Source: a virus
Taxonomy: Duplodnaviria; Heunggongvirae; Uroviricota; Caudoviricetes
DNA: 43,730 bases
Strand: one strand, 5' to 3'
IMG/VR virus record: IMGVR_UViG_2617270944_000006
Below the pieces are notes generated by a model that had not been told where the DNA came from, did no database searches, and was given only the letters and a program-made list of their open reading frames with translations. The position numbers were made by a program, and so were the translations under genes. Position 1 is the first letter of the stretch, and each line of letters starts with the position of its first letter. This document shows positions 23,956 to 38,980 of the stretch, piece by piece.

Positions 23956-24226
23956 AATGTTACCGTAATATGTGAGTATCCATCGACTAGACACTAAGCA
24001 AAAAAGCTCCCGAAGGAGCCTTCATTTTCACTTTCTTAAATCTAACGACAGACGGCTAACATTTAAGTATTGTGAAATATTATCAAATGTAATCATCATT
24101 GATTTACAAAAGATACATTTTGCCCCGAAAGGATTCCTGTCAGAAACATCAAAAGATGATGTTCTATACTGAGAACCATGGCAACACGGGCATCTAAAGT
24201 GAATATGGTTTGTAATATTTTCTACC

Positions 24227-24439
24227 TCAAAGTGCCACAACATGAACAGCCGCGGGGCCTTTAGGTCCGTTCTCAATACCAAATTCGACTTCCTGATTCT
24301 CAGTTAACGTTTTGAAATCGTTGCTCTGAATAGCTGAGAAATGGACAAACACATCTTTGCTACCATCTTTCGGCGTGATGAAACCAAAACCTTTTTCAGG
24401 GTTAAACCATTTCACTAAACCAGTCATTTTGTTAGACAT
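24227..24439 (-). CDS. cspI: Cold-shock protein, CspA family (CspI-like, 70 aa)
   Basis: [34 protein letters not shown] cold-shock domain with RNP motifs; adjacent to Rz as cspI is in Qin. Confidence 0.8.
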
Positions 24440-24802
24440 CATTATTACCTTTTGAAGAAGTTAGCCCTTGGGCAGAATGGTCCGAAAAAAAATATCAGAG
24501 AGAAAAACCAACAAGGAAATCTCAAGAGGTACAAATAATAAAATTATAACAATGACTGCTTCAGATAATTTTGTAACAAACCAGAACACCATTAACGCAT
24601 GATTAACCAACCATAGCAAGGATTACTTTTGTAAAGAAAAACACACGAATGAAACAATATCTTTATTTATTAATAAAACGTGTCATTCTGTCTAATGACC
24701 TTTTATCTTACCCTTAAGATTTCAAGGATTTTGACTCATGGAAGAGTCCTTTTTATTTAAATTTCACATTCAGCGCTAAAAATAATCCGATTTAATATTA
24801 AT

Positions 24803-29825: not shown

Positions 29826-31020
<1,195 letters not shown>

Positions 31021-31058
31021 TTAGACTAATGAAAATCAGACAGCAACTTTTCCTTTAA

Positions 31059-31451
31059 TTATTTCGAACAATCAGCATCCATCTCCAATCGGAGATCCAA
31101 CACCATCAGCATGCCCTCCACTACGCCCTCAGCTTTCTGGAGCATCCTGCCAACCCAACAATCAGATCGCCCATGCTTACGTGCAAGCGCCATAAAAGTC
31201 ATGCCGCCGACATAATAGTCCACCAATAAATCATGTAAATCGCTGTTGTTTTTTTTCAGGCGAGCCATACATTCACAAATGATCATCGCGTCATCGTCAC
31301 AGCATTGCGGACGAGATCTTACTTTTGAAGGAATTAATCCCTTAAAACCGGCGGCAATGGACGACCAGGTCACATCTTCATGATTATTAGCCGCCCATGC
31401 CCCCCAACGCTCAAGAACCATCTGAATATCACGCATCAACTTACTCCACAA
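31059..31451 (-). CDS. Late-gene antiterminator Q (QuuD-like, about 130 aa)
   Basis: Small Cys-containing protein ([13 protein letters not shown]) upstream of the lysis region and downstream of ydfU-like, the Q position in lambdoid phages; size matches the short Q family. Confidence 0.65.
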
Positions 31452-31453
31452 AA

Positions 31454-32503
31454 TTAGGCCAGCACACCAATTGCCAGCGCGCGATCGATAAATCGAAAAA
31501 TCAGCTCCAGTTGGGAGCCATACTTCTCTTCAAATGCCACGGTATCCGTATGCAACTCGTCGTGATGCTTTCTGCACAAAGGCAACACAAAGAGATCATG
31601 TGCTTTGGTTCCCATTCCGCCCTGCCCGTGACCAATCAGATGATGCGGATCGTCGGCTGGCATACCGCAGCAAGCACACGGCTGTGTCTTAACCCAGCGT
31701 GTGTATTTCTCCTTAACCCAACGGTGACGTTTAGGCAGCTTCATGAAAGATTCCGGAGACTCTGGATCAACGGTGATGCTTACCACCGTCTTTTCCTGTG
31801 ATGGGTTTTGTTGCTGGTGGGCGTGAGGCAACGGTGCAAGATTTTTTGTGCGCTGTTTCAATATGCTGGTGGCGGTCTGCTCTCCCGGTACGATGTCGCT
31901 TTCGCGGTACACCGAGCAGTTTTTTTCCGCTGGTAATCCCAGCGAGCGACGTAATACCACTTCCGGTAGCGCGTCCGCCACCTGATTGCGGACCGCCCAC
32001 CAGGATAATTCAGCCAGAGATAATTCACGCTCCTGCGTACCGCTTATTGCGTGACCGATGACGTCAATCATCCATGCTGACAGGTTTTGATGAGCAAGTT
32101 GCTCGAGTGATTCGGATGTCTGGTCACGCAGCTGGTTGTCGCAGTGCCAGCACAACACCATTGCGCCGGTACCATAACGGTGAATAACGGTTTCGCTGTG
32201 ATGATAATCGCCGTGTGGCCACTGGCAGGATTTAATATGGCGCAACAGCCAGTCAGACAATGCACCAGCACCACCAGCAGCACGAATTACCCGTGCGTTA
32301 CTGAAAAACGGCAGCAATGTTTTGTCTTCCACCAGCGGCTGGCGAACGGCAGGAACGACCCCGGACGGCAGATTACGCATGCTTTTCGGTTCCGGCTCCA
32401 CCAGTACCCGGGTATTGTGGAATACCGGCATGGATTCACGGCCCGGCTTAACGACCACCAGCCCGAGTTCCGGTACCAGAACAGGTCGAAGTAATACCCG
32501 CAC
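31454..32503 (-). CDS. YdfU-like protein (DUF968) with C-terminal HNH-like His/Cys motif
   Basis: 349 aa, same length as K-12 YdfU; C-terminal [34 protein letters not shown]; lies immediately upstream of Q. Confidence 0.65.
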
Positions 32504-32504
32504 G

Positions 32505-32783
32505 TTACCTCCAGATGCGTTGCTGGAATGTACGGGACGGACGCGGTGGGCGTTCGGAGTAAGGCAATCTGACTGAGATTATCCAGTGACGGTAGTCGAG
32601 ACTAAGAGCTTTCTTAACCTCGTATCCGCGCCTGCGGTAACACTGAATTATCCATTCAGCCTGCTCTTCAGTGCATGGAGGGTGCTGGAACCATTCAGAC
32701 TTGAATGCGTGAGAATACCGCTCGTGCGTGCAGGCAAGAACGGGCGAATTATCAGAATTGTAATATTTTACGTTGCGTGCCAT
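32505..32783 (-). CDS. Hypothetical protein (92 aa)
   Basis: ORF ending at the ydfU-like start; no family recognised. Confidence 0.35.
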   Translation of the reverse strand: MARNVKYYNSDNSPVLACTHERYSHAFKSEWFQHPPCTEEQAEWIIQCYRRRGYEVKKALSLDYRHWIISVRLPYSERPPRPSRTFQQRIWR

Positions 32784-32849
32784 CGGTTTTCTCCGGTGGC
32801 ACGGTGTTACTCAGCGGGAGTTCAGCCCCGCGCAAGATTGTAGATGAGT

Positions 32850-33101
32850 TTATTCTTCTGCAAAAGCTGAAAAGCCTGCTTTTATTCCGATCTCTTTCAG
32901 TGCCTGTAATGAAGTGACAAACTCACCTTCGCGCAAGATAAATCCGTCTGTCACTCGACCATCCACAAAATTAATTAACGCAGCCCCATTCTTTCGCAAA
33001 CACATAATGCGGTAATGACTAACAAGATTTCCATTTTCAACGCACACAGCATAGAGGCCATCTTCACAAAAAATTTTACGCAGTTCTTCGATGTTCATCA
33101 T
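32850..33101 (-). CDS. Hypothetical small protein (83 aa), possibly Rem-like by position and length
   Basis: 83-aa ORF between hok and ydfU-like, where rem (83 aa) sits in Qin; sequence identity not verified. Confidence 0.4.
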   Translation of the reverse strand: MMNIEELRKIFCEDGLYAVCVENGNLVSHYRIMCLRKNGAALINFVDGRVTDGFILREGEFVTSLQALKEIGIKAGFSAFAEE

Positions 33102-33218
33102 CAGAATCCTTCCGGATAATTAGCTCTCCCCTTTAAGGGACCATCCCTCTTATCCCTGCGCGCTACTTAAGTATTTTTGATTCTATTCCGGCACCGTCCA
33201 GAACTTCAAACGCGTTGA

Positions 33219-33249
33219 AAATAAAAACAAAAACCCGCCGAAGCGGGTT
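33219..33249 (-). terminator. Rho-independent terminator downstream of hok
   Basis: Minus-strand hairpin cccgc-ttcg-gcggg followed by tttttgtttttatttt. Confidence 0.7.
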
Positions 33250-33317
33250 AAGTGCGGGTGCGTTGAGGATGCCTGCCACATCAGAGGTGGCGAGGGATTT
33301 CTCCCTCGCCGGGTCTC

Positions 33318-33473
33318 TTACTCCTCAGGTTCGTAAGCTGTGAAGACAGCGACCTCCGTCTGGCCGGTTCGGATTCGTACCTCGCAGAGGTCTTTCCTCG
33401 TTACCAGTGCCGTCACTATGACGGTTAAACAGATGACGATCAGGGCGATTAACATCGCCTTTTGCTGCTTCAT
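33318..33473 (-). CDS. hokD: Hok/Gef family small membrane toxin (type I toxin-antitoxin), 51 aa
   Basis: MKQQKAMLIALIVICLTVIVTALVTRKDLCEVRIRTGQTEVAVFTAYEPEE matches HokD as recalled; the in-frame upstream extension gives a 70-aa ORF (33318-33530). Confidence 0.85.
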   Translation of the reverse strand: MKQQKAMLIALIVICLTVIVTALVTRKDLCEVRIRTGQTEVAVFTAYEPEE

Positions 33474-33730
33474 AGCCTGCTTCTCCTTGCCTTTCGGCAC
33501 GTAAGAGGCTAACCTACATGTGTCTAGCATGAAATTGGCCTCAGATTAATGTTAAGCGTCTTGCAGGACGCGTAATGTTAACTGGGGCTTTTCTCTACCT
33601 GCCGTTGGTGTTCGTGCCCGAGGCAGATAGCCTCAAGCACCCGCAGTCATTCTACTTAACTAAGATTTCCCCGCAAACCGTTTTGTCCAGCACAGTAAAT
33701 ATCCAACTAAACCAATGGAGTTCGCTGTAT

Positions 33731-33949
33731 TTACCGCCAGTATTCAATGCACATGACCGCCATGAACACCCCTAAAAAAAGGGCATTTATATATCCAAAT
33801 ATTAATATCAAAACATCAACTTTTTCCATATACCTTGCTGTGAAGATGATGGGCATACATGATGCGAACAACCAGAACGCAACAAACAAAAACTGCAATG
33901 CGTTTTTCATTATTCCCCCTACAATCAATGTGCAATAACATTTAAACAC
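33731..33949 (-). CDS. Hypothetical small hydrophobic membrane protein in an AT-rich island
   Basis: 72-aa ORF (or about 59 aa from MKNALQFLF) with two predicted TM helices; very AT-rich. Confidence 0.35.
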   Translation of the reverse strand: MFKCYCTLIVGGIMKNALQFLFVAFWLFASCMPIIFTARYMEKVDVLILIFGYINALFLGVFMAVMCIEYWR

Positions 33950-34382
33950 ACCTCAATTTAGCCGGACATATAAATATCTAAACCAGAAAAAATCACTTAC
34001 ATAGCGTTACAAACTCTTTAGTCTAAATATTCATCGTAAAACATTCCCCATACTTATCAGCCCGTTCTGCGCCAGGTAGCTCATTGCCTTATCTGGGAAC
34101 CTGTAATCAGGTTTCCGGATGCTGGTGGATTTTCGCGTTTTAGTTGTTCATAAAAGTGCACAGCTTTAACCAGTTCTTCTGATGTAACCGGGACTGGCGG
34201 GGCAGTGAATAAGGCCTGAATTTCATAGTTCGGCCTATCGTTACAATCCTCTTTTTTCGGTACATATTTCCAGTCACCAGACCACTACTTCCCCTGAAAG
34301 TCCGTAACGCCTTTTTTTCACGTAGCGATATCGCCATGCCACTGTTTTTGCTTGCCCCGCCGTTTCATGCCCTTCCTGATAA

Positions 34383-34568
34383 TTAACCTCGCTCATTCAT
34401 CGCCCACTCATCACAATATGCTTCGACCGGAGTTTTTCCTGCTTCATAATCATCACGCCATGCTTCAGCATCAGCAGCACTGCCACCACGTAACTCTGCA
34501 TAGTCCATTAACAGTTCATGCCATTCTTCAAAACCGACGTTGTATTTAGTTGAACCAAAATCAGCCAT
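34383..34568 (-). CDS. Hypothetical small acidic protein (61 aa)
   Basis: ORF with GAGGAAG RBS upstream of ATG; acidic, Trp-containing. Confidence 0.45.
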   Translation of the reverse strand: MADFGSTKYNVGFEEWHELLMDYAELRGGSAADAEAWRDDYEAGKTPVEAYCDEWAMNERG

Positions 34569-35250
34569 TTTGTTCTTCCTCTTCGTCTTTTATTTCGTGA
34601 TATGATTAATTGCAGTAGTTAAAGAAAATATCTTTTGCTTCGTCATGTATTTCATCAGGCGTCGCATCATTATCCACTTCGAATTCATCCTCGAAATCTC
34701 CACCGGCTATTCCCGTTTCAATAATTATTTTAAACTTTCGCATTTAACTACCGCCCTTTCGGGCGGCCTCCTGATGTTCTGAGGGTGCAGAAATCCCTCC
34801 GGTTAAGGATTAAATTTTTAACAGTGCTAAATTTAATTATTCAGTTCTGGATTTTGTCACCCTGCGTATCCGCGCTTTCCCGTTACGCTCAATCTGAATT
34901 AGCTTTTCTATATTTTTTCGTCTTTCCCGTTCCTCCTGGCGCAAGAGCCTTACATCATCTGCCAGTCTGGTTTCTCTTTTCGCCACAGAGAGCATCCAGT
35001 CAAATGGCTCCACAACTGCACCTCAGATTTTACAGCGGACCTGACGCTCTTTTTCGTCAACCCGGACAGAAGCGTGATGGCAATATGGTCTTTCCGATGG
35101 CTCATAAAGAAAATTAACCTGATTACGAGGGTCATCCTCTTTTATCGGAAATAAAACGATATTGCTTAACTAATCCTCTGGTTTTATTTCCATGCTCCTC
35201 TCCTTTGATGCGAATGCCAGCGGTAATTGAAGCCTGATAGCTAATTTCAC

Positions 35251-35673
35251 TCACAGTACCGCCTCCTGAAAATTACCCTGATAGAAAGCCAGTACACGCT
35301 GCATAGCTTCACTCTTCCGGCACTCGCGACAGATTATGTTTAGACGACTGTCGTAGCGACGTATTTCTCCATCAGGTAGTGACCAGATAAGGTCCGGATC
35401 AACCACAGCGGGTTTCTTCACCTTCGCCCTAGAGAGTTTTTTGCGGGCATTTTGCCAGTCCTTTCGTGCCTGTTCAGACGGGAATAACCCGTAGCCGGAG
35501 TTGTATACATAACCACTGGCAACCAGCTCTCTGGCAAGAATGCTCATCAGATATCTTGTCGCACCTGTTTTAGCTTCCAACTGTCGTAATGTCTCGCGAC
35601 CGCTCTGGCGCACAAGTTCGACCACCTGCTCTTTAATTTTTTCCCGCTCTTCCTGTGTAAAAACTTTTGCCAC
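35251..35673 (-). CDS. Hypothetical phage early protein (140 aa), downstream of the replication initiator
   Basis: ORF only; basic C-terminal half with CxxC (CRECRK). Confidence 0.45.
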   Translation of the reverse strand: MAKVFTQEEREKIKEQVVELVRQSGRETLRQLEAKTGATRYLMSILARELVASGYVYNSGYGLFPSEQARKDWQNARKKLSRAKVKKPAVVDPDLIWSLPDGEIRRYDSRLNIICRECRKSEAMQRVLAFYQGNFQEAVL

Positions 35674-35713
35674 AAGTCCTCCTTAAAATTACCTCATGAC
35701 CTGAAATCAACAC

Positions 35714-36679
35714 TTATCCCCTGAAACCAGGCGGAATTTCTGTATCCGGTTCAGAAATATGATTCACACAACGCTGTACAGGTGAACGTCCCAAGCGGAT
35801 GACCAGTTCGTCCCATTTTTCGCGGAGTTTTGACGGGCTCATGATGTTTTTTACCCAGAATGGATCTCGCTGTACCCGACCAAACATTTCGCAAATTTGT
35901 CTGTGGCTTCTGCCATCCAGCATCCGCATTGTGCGCACGTCATTGGCCCAGGCTGTCCAGTTAGGCTCTTTTGGTCGCATGATCTCTCCATCGTCGCTGG
36001 CAGCCTGTTCGTAAAGGTTCACGATCCGTCCCCAAATCCACTGCGCACACGCCAAATCCTCCCTGCTACCCCACTGGCGTTTTTTCGCACTAAACACAAC
36101 CGCGTCGGGGTTCCGGATTAAAAAATCCTGTTCAGCGGTCTGCGGGTCCGGTTGCGAAGCTTCCGGACGAAAAGTGTTTTTATTCTCTGTAGTAATCTCT
36201 GTTGTATTCTCTGTAAGATCATCAGGCCATTTTGACCCGATGACATTGGGTCGTTTTGAACCAATGGAGCGTTTCATTTTGACCTCTTCCATCGTGTCAT
36301 TTTGACCTGATGGAGCGGCGCATTTTGAACCGATGGATTCGTTCAATTTGCCACCATCTAAAAGCTCGCTCCCATAGTTGATCGTGTAGAAATTGGTCAT
36401 ATCGCGCTTTGATTTATTGAGCTTTTCACAACGCAAAAGCCCCAGCGTTTTCAGACTTGCAAACGCGCGCTTTAACGTTGACTCTGACCAGAATGGGAAC
36501 TGTTCCAGCCATTGTTCCGTTGTGTTGTAAATCCAGCGAACACCATCACATTCCATGCCGGAATTGGTATCTCTCAACCAGTAATGCAGTTGTTGCAAAA
36601 CAATGGCTTCGTTTAAGCCAATTTTCATTGCCAGCTGCGTGTTTATAACCAGTGGGCGTTCAGCAAAAAGAAGGCTCAT
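35714..36679 (-). CDS. Replication initiator (lambda O-like, replisome organiser) with internal iteron array
   Basis: N-terminal HTH-like region; the central part is encoded by directly repeated DNA (protein repeats SIGSK..); sits after the cro-like dicC and a cII-position gene. The start is uncertain; the tracked ORF extends to a TTG at 36733. Confidence 0.65.
   Translation of the reverse strand: MSLLFAERPLVINTQLAMKIGLNEAIVLQQLHYWLRDTNSGMECDGVRWIYNTTEQWLEQFPFWSESTLKRAFASLKTLGLLRCEKLNKSKRDMTNFYTINYGSELLDGGKLNESIGSKCAAPSGQNDTMEEVKMKRSIGSKRPNVIGSKWPDDLTENTTEITTENKNTFRPEASQPDPQTAEQDFLIRNPDAVVFSAKKRQWGSREDLACAQWIWGRIVNLYEQAASDDGEIMRPKEPNWTAWANDVRTMRMLDGRSHRQICEMFGRVQRDPFWVKNIMSPSKLREKWDELVIRLGRSPVQRCVNHISEPDTEIPPGFRG
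36228..36350. repeat. Iteron array: 5-6 direct repeats of cattttgaMC(n)gatgg with roughly 23-24 bp spacing (candidate origin of replication)
   Basis: Direct repeats ttttgaccc, ttttgaacc, ttttgacct, ttttgacct, ttttgaacc at approximately 36230, 36254, 36277, 36300 and 36324. Confidence 0.65.
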
Positions 36680-37181
36680 AATTCCATCCAGCTTTTTGTT
36701 GGTATTGCTGTCGATACGCAAGCTTGAAAGCAATTGCTTTTTCTATAAGTTCGTCAGTTTCACGATCCACTACGGCAGGATCAGCAAAAAGCAGTCCGGA
36801 CTCCACCACATCGCCATATTCTTTGTTTAACCCGGCGATCATGCACGTGATGCTTTTTCCGTCAGTAATTTCACGATACAACCTGAAATCACTAATCCGG
36901 ATAGCCTCCATAATCGCAGGCACTAGCGCCGTGAACTTTTCACGCTTATCCCTGGTGTCGATAGCCTTCCAGCGTTCGAATATCTTCACTCGATTAACAC
37001 CAAGCGCTCGCTGATCAACCGCGCCACCTTCATCTGTGACACGCTGAACATCGATGTTCGGGCGCTCTTTCAAAGCCCAGAATGCTTCAGTGATTAATAT
37101 CGTCGCCTGCTCCTGTGTCATTCCTGGTCGACATATCCAGGCATCCAGAGCCTCACGAGCCTGTTCAGGAGTGATTTTCAT
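36660..37181 (-). CDS. Hypothetical early-right protein at the cII position (173 aa)
   Basis: ORF directly downstream of dicC, overlapping its 3' end; no family recognised. Confidence 0.45.
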   Translation of the reverse strand: MKITPEQAREALDAWICRPGMTQEQATILITEAFWALKERPNIDVQRVTDEGGAVDQRALGVNRVKIFERWKAIDTRDKREKFTALVPAIMEAIRISDFRLYREITDGKSITCMIAGLNKEYGDVVESGLLFADPAVVDRETDELIEKAIAFKLAYRQQYQQKAGWNYEPSFC

Positions 37182-37395
37182 TGTTCAACCGCCCCGCCCG
37201 CTTCGTCTTACGATATTCATCATAAACTTTGGGATCATACTGAAGCTCCCCGCCAGATGCCTCCTGTAGACGCATCGCGCGACCTTCAGGAACCAGTATC
37301 CCCCAAGCAGCAACACTTGCCAGCCTCACTCCTGCGGCATTGGCAAGCTTTGTTTTGCTGCCAAAAAAAGTAATTGCGTCAACTTTAAGCATCAA
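37165..37395 (-). CDS. dicC: Cro-like repressor DicC
   Basis: 76 aa, ...FGSKTKLANAAGVRLASVAAW...LVPEGRAMRLQEASGGELQYDPKVYDEYRK matches DicC as recalled; divergent from dicA. Confidence 0.8.
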   Translation of the reverse strand: MMLKVDAITFFGSKTKLANAAGVRLASVAAWGILVPEGRAMRLQEASGGELQYDPKVYDEYRKTKRAGRLNNENHS

Positions 37396-37405
37396 AGCCC
37401 CCTCT

Positions 37406-37423
37406 TGTTAGACTTTTCTAACA
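37406..37423. promoter_or_regulatory. Operator palindrome TGTTAGActtttTCTAACA in the dicC-dicA intergenic region
   Basis: Perfect inverted repeat TGTTAGA/TCTAACA between the divergent repressor genes. Confidence 0.65.
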
Positions 37424-37472
37424 TTATTGTGCGCGGGATACCTAAGTCAAGAAAAATTAGAATTACCTAACT

Positions 37473-37880
37473 ATGGATACAAGAACCCTGGGCCAGCGAG
37501 TTCTGGCGCGACGAAAAGAATTACGCTTAACACAACGAGAAGCCGCGCGCCTCGCTGGAGTTGCTCACGTCACAATTTCACAATGGGAAAGAGACGAAAC
37601 CCAGCCAGTCGGAAAACGATTGTTTGCTTTAGCGGATGCTCTGAAGTGCTCACCTACATGGCTAATGTTTGGTGACGAAGACAAGGCACCAGTGCCTGCA
37701 CAAGAACTTCATGTGGAAACAGAGCTAACTCCCAACCACAAAGAATTGATCGAATTATTCGATGCTCTTCCATCTTCCGAGCAGGAAGCCTTGCTGTCTG
37801 AAATGCGCGCAAGAGTAGAAAACTTCAACAAACTCTTCGAAGAAATGCTTAAAGCGCGTAAAAATAAATCAATAAAATAA
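37473..37880 (+). CDS. dicA: CI-like repressor DicA (XRE-family HTH)
   Basis: 135 aa; HTH LTQREAARLAGVAHVTISQWERDETQP and C-terminal ...CSPTWLMFGDEDK...EMRARVENFNKLFEEMLKAR match DicA as recalled. Confidence 0.85.
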   Translation: MDTRTLGQRVLARRKELRLTQREAARLAGVAHVTISQWERDETQPVGKRLFALADALKCSPTWLMFGDEDKAPVPAQELHVETELTPNHKELIELFDALPSSEQEALLSEMRARVENFNKLFEEMLKARKNKSIK

Positions 37881-38922: not shown

Positions 38923-38980
38923 TTTCTGGTGACGTTTGGCGGTATCAGTTTTACTCCGTGACTGCTCTGCCGCCCTTTTT
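38923..38980 (+). ncRNA. dicF: DicF small regulatory RNA (Hfq-dependent sRNA that represses ftsZ), including its terminator hairpin
   Basis: Sequence tttctggtgacgtttggcggtatcagttttactccgtgactgctctgccgccc followed by ttttt matches DicF as I recall it; located between ydfC and dicB. Confidence 0.85.

Follow-up and report, generated by a model that had tools for sequence, protein, structure and literature searches.

In the Qin prophage of Escherichia coli K-12, the toxin gene hokD lies downstream of relBE. The window analysed here, a Caudoviricetes sequence of 43 730 nt (IMG/VR record IMGVR_UViG_2617270944_000006), carries a Hok open reading frame (ORF) on its minus strand for which a sequence-only reading had claimed an absence of relB and relE, an in-frame upstream extension to 70 codons and a strong terminator of its own, and had taken the arrangement to be unusual. 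We asked whether this locus is a self-contained type I toxin-antitoxin module, how it is related to the K-12 form and what it may do for its prophage.

Identity and coding content of the locus

The product of the hok reading frame was 100% identical to HokD WP_000813254.1, the RefSeq protein of K-12, BL21 and many other strains, and the 70-aa product of the longer frame matched the Pfam family HOK_GEF (PF01848) with an E-value of 3e-23 and 81.6 bits against a cut-off of 22. The Rfam scan returned an end-to-end match to RF01794 at 33468-33642 on the minus strand with 107.8 bits and an E-value of 1e-23, and the match is therefore far beyond chance. RF01794 bears the name 'sok' but, as we take it, in fact models the hok mRNA leader. 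The fold-back elements tac/fbi, ucb and sokT, which the scan had been suggested to look for, were all present. With every canonical hok/sok element in place (Table 1), the expectation of a self-contained hok locus without relBE was borne out, and the locus very probably represents a complete hok/mok/sok module (type I toxin-antitoxin) that belongs to the hokD/hokW subfamily and lies in the early-right region (cro to O to Q) of a Qin-like lambdoid prophage. The module extends over ~33222-33676; the span of 33219-33600 first given for it was too short, missing the first 42 nt of the hok mRNA, which include tac, together with the hok promoter.

At E <= 10, the 43.7-kb window gave no RelE homologue. 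Its single RelB match (tblastn, 1741-1857, E = 0.008) was discarded as an artefact inside a low-complexity Ala/Ser-rich tail-fibre ORF, and the Hok ORF thus indeed stands without relB and relE.

In 22 related loci the mok and hok start codons were 57 nt apart, in frame, whereas in another 8 the distance was 58 nt, which places mok in the +1 frame; the mok Shine-Dalgarno (SD) sequence, the mok ATG and the offset were conserved in 30 loci. The in-frame offset of 57 nt is common to the window, mokC/hokC of K-12 and mokW/hokW of phage 933W. Because both of these pairs are annotated in the same arrangement, with a common stop codon and a 19-codon extension, the 70-codon in-frame ORF is mok, as had been supposed from its length, in the version usual for the hokC/hokD/hokW branch. 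The same annotated arrangement ruled out a new, longer isoform of Hok. A decayed locus was likewise ruled out, as frameshifts, IS elements and missing elements were all absent.

The module is an ordinary, intact copy of a type and organisation already known, as very nearly is its sequence, and its best name is full-length hokD locus, close kin of hokW-sokW. RefSeq annotates the hokD coding sequence (CDS) alone at this locus, with no entry for mok, Sok or the mRNA elements, and a reader may therefore easily take the relBE-hokD arrangement of K-12 as the standard one. The value of the result lies mainly in annotation and little in discovery, and experiments that are impossible in K-12 could use the window copy as a natural hokD/sokD of full length.

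Codon 47 of hok (Tyr47) is a TAC within a TACG motif at 33333-33336. TACG is the TadA A-to-I editing motif, and Tyr to Cys recoding has been reported in hokD mRNA (PMC5630033).

Table 1. Features of the hok/mok/sok locus and their positions in the window
Feature	Position	Strand	Sequence, extent and basis
hok promoter	33649-33676	minus	-35-like TTGCGG (33671-33676), 16-bp spacer, -10 TAGAAT (33649-33654)
Full-length hok (mok-hok) mRNA	33222-33642	minus	~420 nt; 5' end from the RF01794 model start, 3' end from the terminator
tac (translational activator)	33631-33642	minus	GGGUGCUUGAGG; mRNA 5' end; pairs with fbi in the full-length MFE fold
ucb / anti-SD box	33584-33591	minus	AAGCCCC; alternative partner of tac and mok SD; full-length fold, Rfam consensus
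mok Shine-Dalgarno	33539-33542	minus	GAGG; 8 nt 5' of the mok ATG; invariant in the alignment
sokT target hairpin	33505-33542	minus	GAGGCC...CAUG-CUAGACA-CAUG...AGCCUC; Rfam consensus helix 3; constrained fold
mok ORF	33318-33530	minus	70 codons; ATG at 33530; in frame with hok, 19 extra N-terminal codons
hok Shine-Dalgarno region	33480-33488	minus	AAGGAGAAG; sequence, alignment
hok toxin CDS	33318-33473	minus	51 codons, 51 aa; ORF list, Pfam, protein identity
3' UTR stem-loop	33289-33310	minus	GGCGAGGGA-GAAA-UCCCUCGCC; fold
fbi (fold-back inhibitory)	33256-33268	minus	CCUCAACGCACCC; full-length fold, alignment
Intrinsic terminator	33222-33249	minus	AACCCGC-UUCG-GCGGGUU then UUUGUUUUUA; stem 33232-33249, T-run to ~33222; generic terminator scan
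Sok promoter	33487-33515	plus	-35 TTGCCT (33487-33492), 17-bp spacer, -10 TAACCT (33510-33515)
Sok antisense RNA (predicted)	~33522-33595	plus	~71-77 nt, 3' end ~33592-33598; ends by alignment to annotated sokW (933W, 71 nt) and sokC (K-12)

Elements of the hok mRNA

In a generic sigma-70 scan of the locus, neither the hok nor the Sok promoter exceeded the threshold, and both were therefore placed by homology and conserved position. The hok promoter escaped the consensus scan because its -35 element is weak. Its -10 element lies 6 nt from the 5' G of the mRNA (33642), and the position of this element relative to the GGG start was kept with diverging flanks as TATAAT in Escherichia, TAGAAT in Kluyvera, TATATT in Photorhabdus and TATTAT in Pantoea. 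The generic promoter/terminator scan did find the hok terminator. Its single promoter-like match, at 33180-33209 on the minus strand, was set aside as unrelated, being downstream of that terminator.

The 3' arm AGCCUC of the sokT hairpin constitutes dcb, and the loop sequence CUAG presumably fits the YUNR U-turn. The terminator sequence was identical in K-12 and BL21, and the strong terminator is accordingly present as had been noticed but is not special to the window copy; the copies of 933W, Rac-SA53 and the P1-like phage diverge directly after fbi. The 3' UTR stem-loop was paired in 97% of cases with three compensatory pairs among 34 aligned loci. We adopted the definitions of tac, ucb, mok SD, sokT, dcb and fbi from work on plasmid R1, by analogy with which the 3' UTR stem-loop is predicted to act as the hairpin that protects the 3' end of the processed mRNA (PMC9841398).

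Folding and structural conservation

The full-length mRNA folded with a minimum free energy (MFE) of -172.7 kcal/mol (z = -6.9 against shuffles). In this fold tac and fbi formed a 12-bp helix, and in both the MFE and centroid folds of the full-length RNA the mok SD GAGG was paired with CCCC of ucb. In R1, tac/fbi closure and mok SD sequestration define the closed, untranslatable hok mRNA (PMC9841398).

We then mapped the full-length fold of the window onto an alignment of 34 loci. Besides the window itself, 30 of these came from GTDB species-representative genomes and three from records of phages (933W, Stx2_14040 and a P1-like phage), and together they cover Escherichia species, Shigella, Kluyvera, Citrobacter, Pseudocitrobacter, Photorhabdus and Pantoea. 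Across the 34 loci, counted as 6 genera, standard pairs were found in 87.9% of the cells, compared with 37-44% (about 41%) when the partners were slid by 1-3 columns, a paired fraction that is inflated by taking the structure from one member of the alignment. The compensatory changes are independent of that choice: pairs changed on both sides numbered 37, against 12-18 in the slid controls, and none of 500 shuffles reached the observed covariation score.

The pairs between ucb and the mok SD were invariant in the 34 loci. The tac/fbi duplex was kept in all 32 rows that retained both ends (two of the 34, both phage rows, were mis-trimmed), including Citrobacter, and this helix (helix 1) was 92% paired with four pairs changed on both sides. 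Among its compensatory changes, U4-A had become C-G in Photorhabdus and Pantoea, and G12-C had become A-U in Kluyvera.

The Rfam consensus represents the open form, made up of a stem between tac and ucb, the sokT hairpin and the complement of the Sok terminator, and the window sequence fits it. When this open fold was imposed on the 175-nt leader, its energy was -48.2 kcal/mol compared with -62.2 for the leader MFE, placing the open form 14 kcal/mol higher. In thermodynamic folding, 3'-truncated RNAs adopted a 5' metastable hairpin instead of the tac/ucb open form, and for this reason the refolding step was not reproduced in silico; a refolding step after 3' processing is nevertheless plausible.

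The predicted Sok antisense RNA

An antisense RNA had been expected on the plus strand at around 33480-33570. A putative cis-antisense Sok gene that has its own promoter and a terminator hairpin does overlap the mok start on that strand, although the predicted RNA and its promoter occupy the positions of Table 1 rather than that interval. A plus-strand sigma-70 promoter, which had been proposed as a check, can be recognised as TTGCCT/TAACCT. Its -10 element matches only 3 of the 6 consensus positions, and the site lies below the threshold of the generic scan; over its full length, however, it is identical to the sokW promoter of 933W. Inactivation of the sokW -10 element by mutation abolished antitoxin activity (PMC8621323).

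The predicted start, G33522, aligns with the annotated 5' ends of both sokW and sokC, and the predicted Sok was identical to sokW at 67 of 74 aligned columns. Its predicted shape is a single-stranded 5' tail followed by a long hairpin ending in GGGGCUUUUCUCU, the base of the hairpin being formed by GGCCUCAG and CUGGGGCU and followed by the U-run UUUUCUCU. The plus strand of this region folded to -30.4 kcal/mol (z = -4.7), compared with -22.8 for its complement.

The hairpin at 33544-33580 carries an extra inner stem-loop of 18-21 nt, ACGCGUCCUGCAAGACGC, relative to the Rfam consensus and to the hokC and Photorhabdus copies. The 933W, Kluyvera and P1-like copies have this stem-loop as well, whereas Stx2_14040 does not.

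Among eight hokD/hokW-like copies, the 12 nt at 33523-33534 were the most variable stretch of the whole mRNA. This stretch corresponds to the 5' tail of Sok, some of the sokT loop, and mok codons 1-3 plus the preceding 4 nt. Such variability of the Sok 5' tail between near-identical paralogues might point to selection for non-cross-reacting copies within one genome, and the divergence may represent shifted Sok specificity between paralogous copies. A literature search for the name 'sokD' found no paper using it.

Comparison with K-12 hokD, distribution and prophage setting

The K-12 Qin locus relBE-hokD (relF) shares with the window an identical Hok protein, the 3' UTR, fbi and the terminator, with rem, ydfU and Q downstream. 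The alignment was identical from the hok SD through the terminator into rem and broke exactly 5' of AGGAGAAGCAGGC, where K-12 carries the 3' end of relE directly upstream of the hok SD, confirming the placement of hokD downstream of relBE in that strain. Because homology stops at the hok SD, K-12 hokD is without the hok promoter, tac, ucb, the mok start, sokT and Sok, all of which are present in the window, and has relB-relE in their place.

Among 5426 complete E. coli genomes, the intact leader was detected in 4301, counted as at least 80% of a 221-nt leader query that extended over the hok promoter and 34 nt at the start of hok, while the K-12-type relE-hokD junction was detected in 1165. 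The stand-alone, leader-containing form is therefore the common one in E. coli, and the K-12 form is leaderless and truncated. With these counts, and with an in-frame mok being normal for the subfamily, the view of the window arrangement as unusual did not hold. A 100% identical sequence was present in several unrelated strains, and near-identical copies occurred at a median of two and up to nine places per genome.

A relBE junction was also found outside E. coli. In Kluyvera sp. CHPC 1.2972 (L035:100-760), relB (98.7% aa identity) and relE (96.8% aa identity) lie directly 5' of a different hok allele, which is 70% identical to HokD and closely resembles a Citrobacter youngae allele that has the full leader. 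At the relE-hok junction, GTTGACAG is followed by ATGTTAGCC in this Kluyvera genome and by GAGAAGCAGGC in K-12, from which it follows that either two hok lineages carry relBE instead of the leader, joined at one and the same point, or recombination took place within hok. Hok sequences 96-100% identical to HokD were also found on tiny contigs (275-2995 nt) assigned to Acinetobacter idrijaensis (L025), Xanthomonas pisi (L030) and a metagenome-assembled genome (L063); such HokD-like contigs in non-enterobacterial assemblies are most likely E. coli contamination.

The neighbouring genes of the window locus included Cro/CI-like, YdaT, O and DUF977 genes and small ORFs, followed by hok, rem, ydfU and Q, with DicF, dicB and cspI farther away. 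This gene set identifies a Qin-like lambdoid prophage. Rfam matches were further obtained for the cspA thermoregulator at 24181-24597 on the minus strand (109.8 bits), upstream of a prophage cold-shock gene, and for the DicF sRNA at 38924-38975 on the plus strand (76.7 bits), both of which we take to be typical Qin cargo. Just 5' of the hok promoter, a 72-codon ORF at 33731-33949 on the minus strand encodes a predicted hydrophobic small protein with no Pfam match, and in related genomes RefSeq treats this region as a hypothetical pseudogene with a frameshift.

Other closely related systems

The closest characterised system is mokW/hokW/sokW of the Stx2 phage 933W and the Sakai prophage Sp5, with 92.4% nucleotide identity over 95% of a 456-nt query. 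Like the window, it has a 70-codon in-frame mok, a 51-aa Hok and an extended Sok hairpin, and resides in a lambdoid prophage. As translated from the nucleotide alignment, the two Hok proteins differ at four of the last eight residues (FVDYESEK in HokW and FTAYEPEE in the window). The 933W locus further differs in the Sok 5' tail and mok codons 3-4 and, diverging right after fbi, is without the terminator of the window, and in 933W and Sp5 hokW lies near the genome end, in a position and with neighbours unlike those of the window. In Sp5, hokW-sokW is a type I toxin-antitoxin system in which HokW is toxic and sokW RNA counteracts it, partly in an RNase III- and Hfq-dependent manner (PMC8621323).

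The chromosomal E. coli locus hokC/mokC/sokC (gef) has the same element order, an in-frame mok with a 19-codon extension, and the same tac and fbi sequences. K-12 SokC is annotated as 59 nt long with a 9-nt overlap with the mok start. The hokC locus differs from the window in its Hok (~82% identity), in a shorter Sok hairpin without the 18-nt insertion and in a Sok -10 of CACTCT, and it occupies a chromosomal non-prophage site, where the K-12 copy is disrupted by IS186.

The mok of R1 is in the +1 frame relative to hok, an arrangement whose 58-nt offset also occurs in the P1-like and Kluyvera loci, whereas mok of the window is in frame, and R1 is a plasmid system whereas the window is a prophage system. 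In R1 hok/mok/sok (parB), tac, ucb, mok SD, sokT, dcb, fbi, the 70-codon mok and the ~65-70 nt Sok are collinear with those of the window (PMC9841398). HokW, the close relative of the window Hok, is 44% identical to R1 Hok (PMC8621323). E. coli O157 Sakai carries 14 Hok/Gef genes (PMC2887945).

Proposed mechanism and possible roles

Exonucleolytic 3' processing, RNase III cleavage of the duplex and toxicity on loss of Sok have been shown for R1 (PMC9841398) and hokW-sokW (PMC8621323), and by homology to these systems we propose how expression, processing, toxicity and the physiological trigger of the window copy would be organised. A weak constitutive promoter would yield a stable ~420-nt mRNA in which tac at the 5' end is paired with fbi at the 3' end and the mok SD is masked by ucb, and by these pairings the full-length RNA would be neither translated nor bound by Sok. 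Slow 3' trimming would remove fbi, whereupon the 5' end would refold into tac/ucb, the sokT hairpin would form and mok would become translatable. Translation of mok, in this locus an in-frame N-terminal extension of Hok, would open the hok start site and allow the membrane toxin to be made. The short-lived plus-strand Sok would pair with the mok start/sokT region, block mok and direct RNase III cleavage; Hok would therefore appear only once Sok synthesis stops or is outrun.

One possible role of such a module, which we hold short of probable, is that the intact module serves the phage lytic programme, with Sok falling and Hok rising upon induction to give early membrane damage and more phage release, as for hokW-sokW of Sp5. 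After mitomycin C treatment of Sp5, sokW decreased, HokW increased, lysis occurred earlier and the phage yield was about twice that of the deletion mutant (PMC8621323). The near-identity of the window locus to hokW-sokW and the identical Sok promoter argue for this role, as does the orientation of hok on the strand of the cro-O-Q early operon, where induced read-through would oppose the Sok promoter. On the other hand, a Qin-like prophage may be defective, with IS elements and pseudogenes nearby in the window and in related genomes, and the position of hokW near the genome end is a different one. Under this reading the machine itself would be unchanged and only its role would differ.

A classical addiction module that penalises prophage loss by post-segregational killing, as the sequence-only reading had envisaged, is unlikely. 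The architecture is that of R1 hok/sok, the paradigm of post-segregational killing (PMC9841398), and the enrichment of hok genes in prophages is about four-fold (10.1101/2025.08.07.668861). Against it, the citing passage of the latter work refers to Pedersen and Gerdes 1999 for chromosomal hok loci without post-segregational killing, the closest studied relative, hokW-sokW, promotes phage release (PMC8621323), K-12 lost sok and the leader without consequence, and the Sok RNAs of several near-identical copies in one genome could cross-protect.

Least probable among these roles is a sequence-intact but functionally silent relic, transcribed with Hok never at toxic levels: Hok would require TadA editing of Tyr47 for a second cysteine if the hokB model applies (PMC5630033), but the regulatory elements are all intact with their structure kept by compensatory changes, an identical sequence persists in unrelated strains, the 92% identical hokW is toxic (PMC8621323), and the K-12 copies are inactive through IS insertions or rearrangement, of which the window copy bears no such lesion.

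The complete hok/mok/sok module is co-oriented with the early operon cro-YdaT-O-...-rem-ydfU-Q (window 31000-37500), and early read-through would therefore oppose the Sok promoter. A speculative and rather unlikely extension of the lytic role is thus an induction-coupled switch, in which read-through upon derepression would hit the Sok promoter head-on, make hok RNAs without the tac 5' end and free Hok as an early lysis aid. By the same co-orientation, the strong hok terminator sits between the replication genes and Q, and it might gate transcription towards Q.
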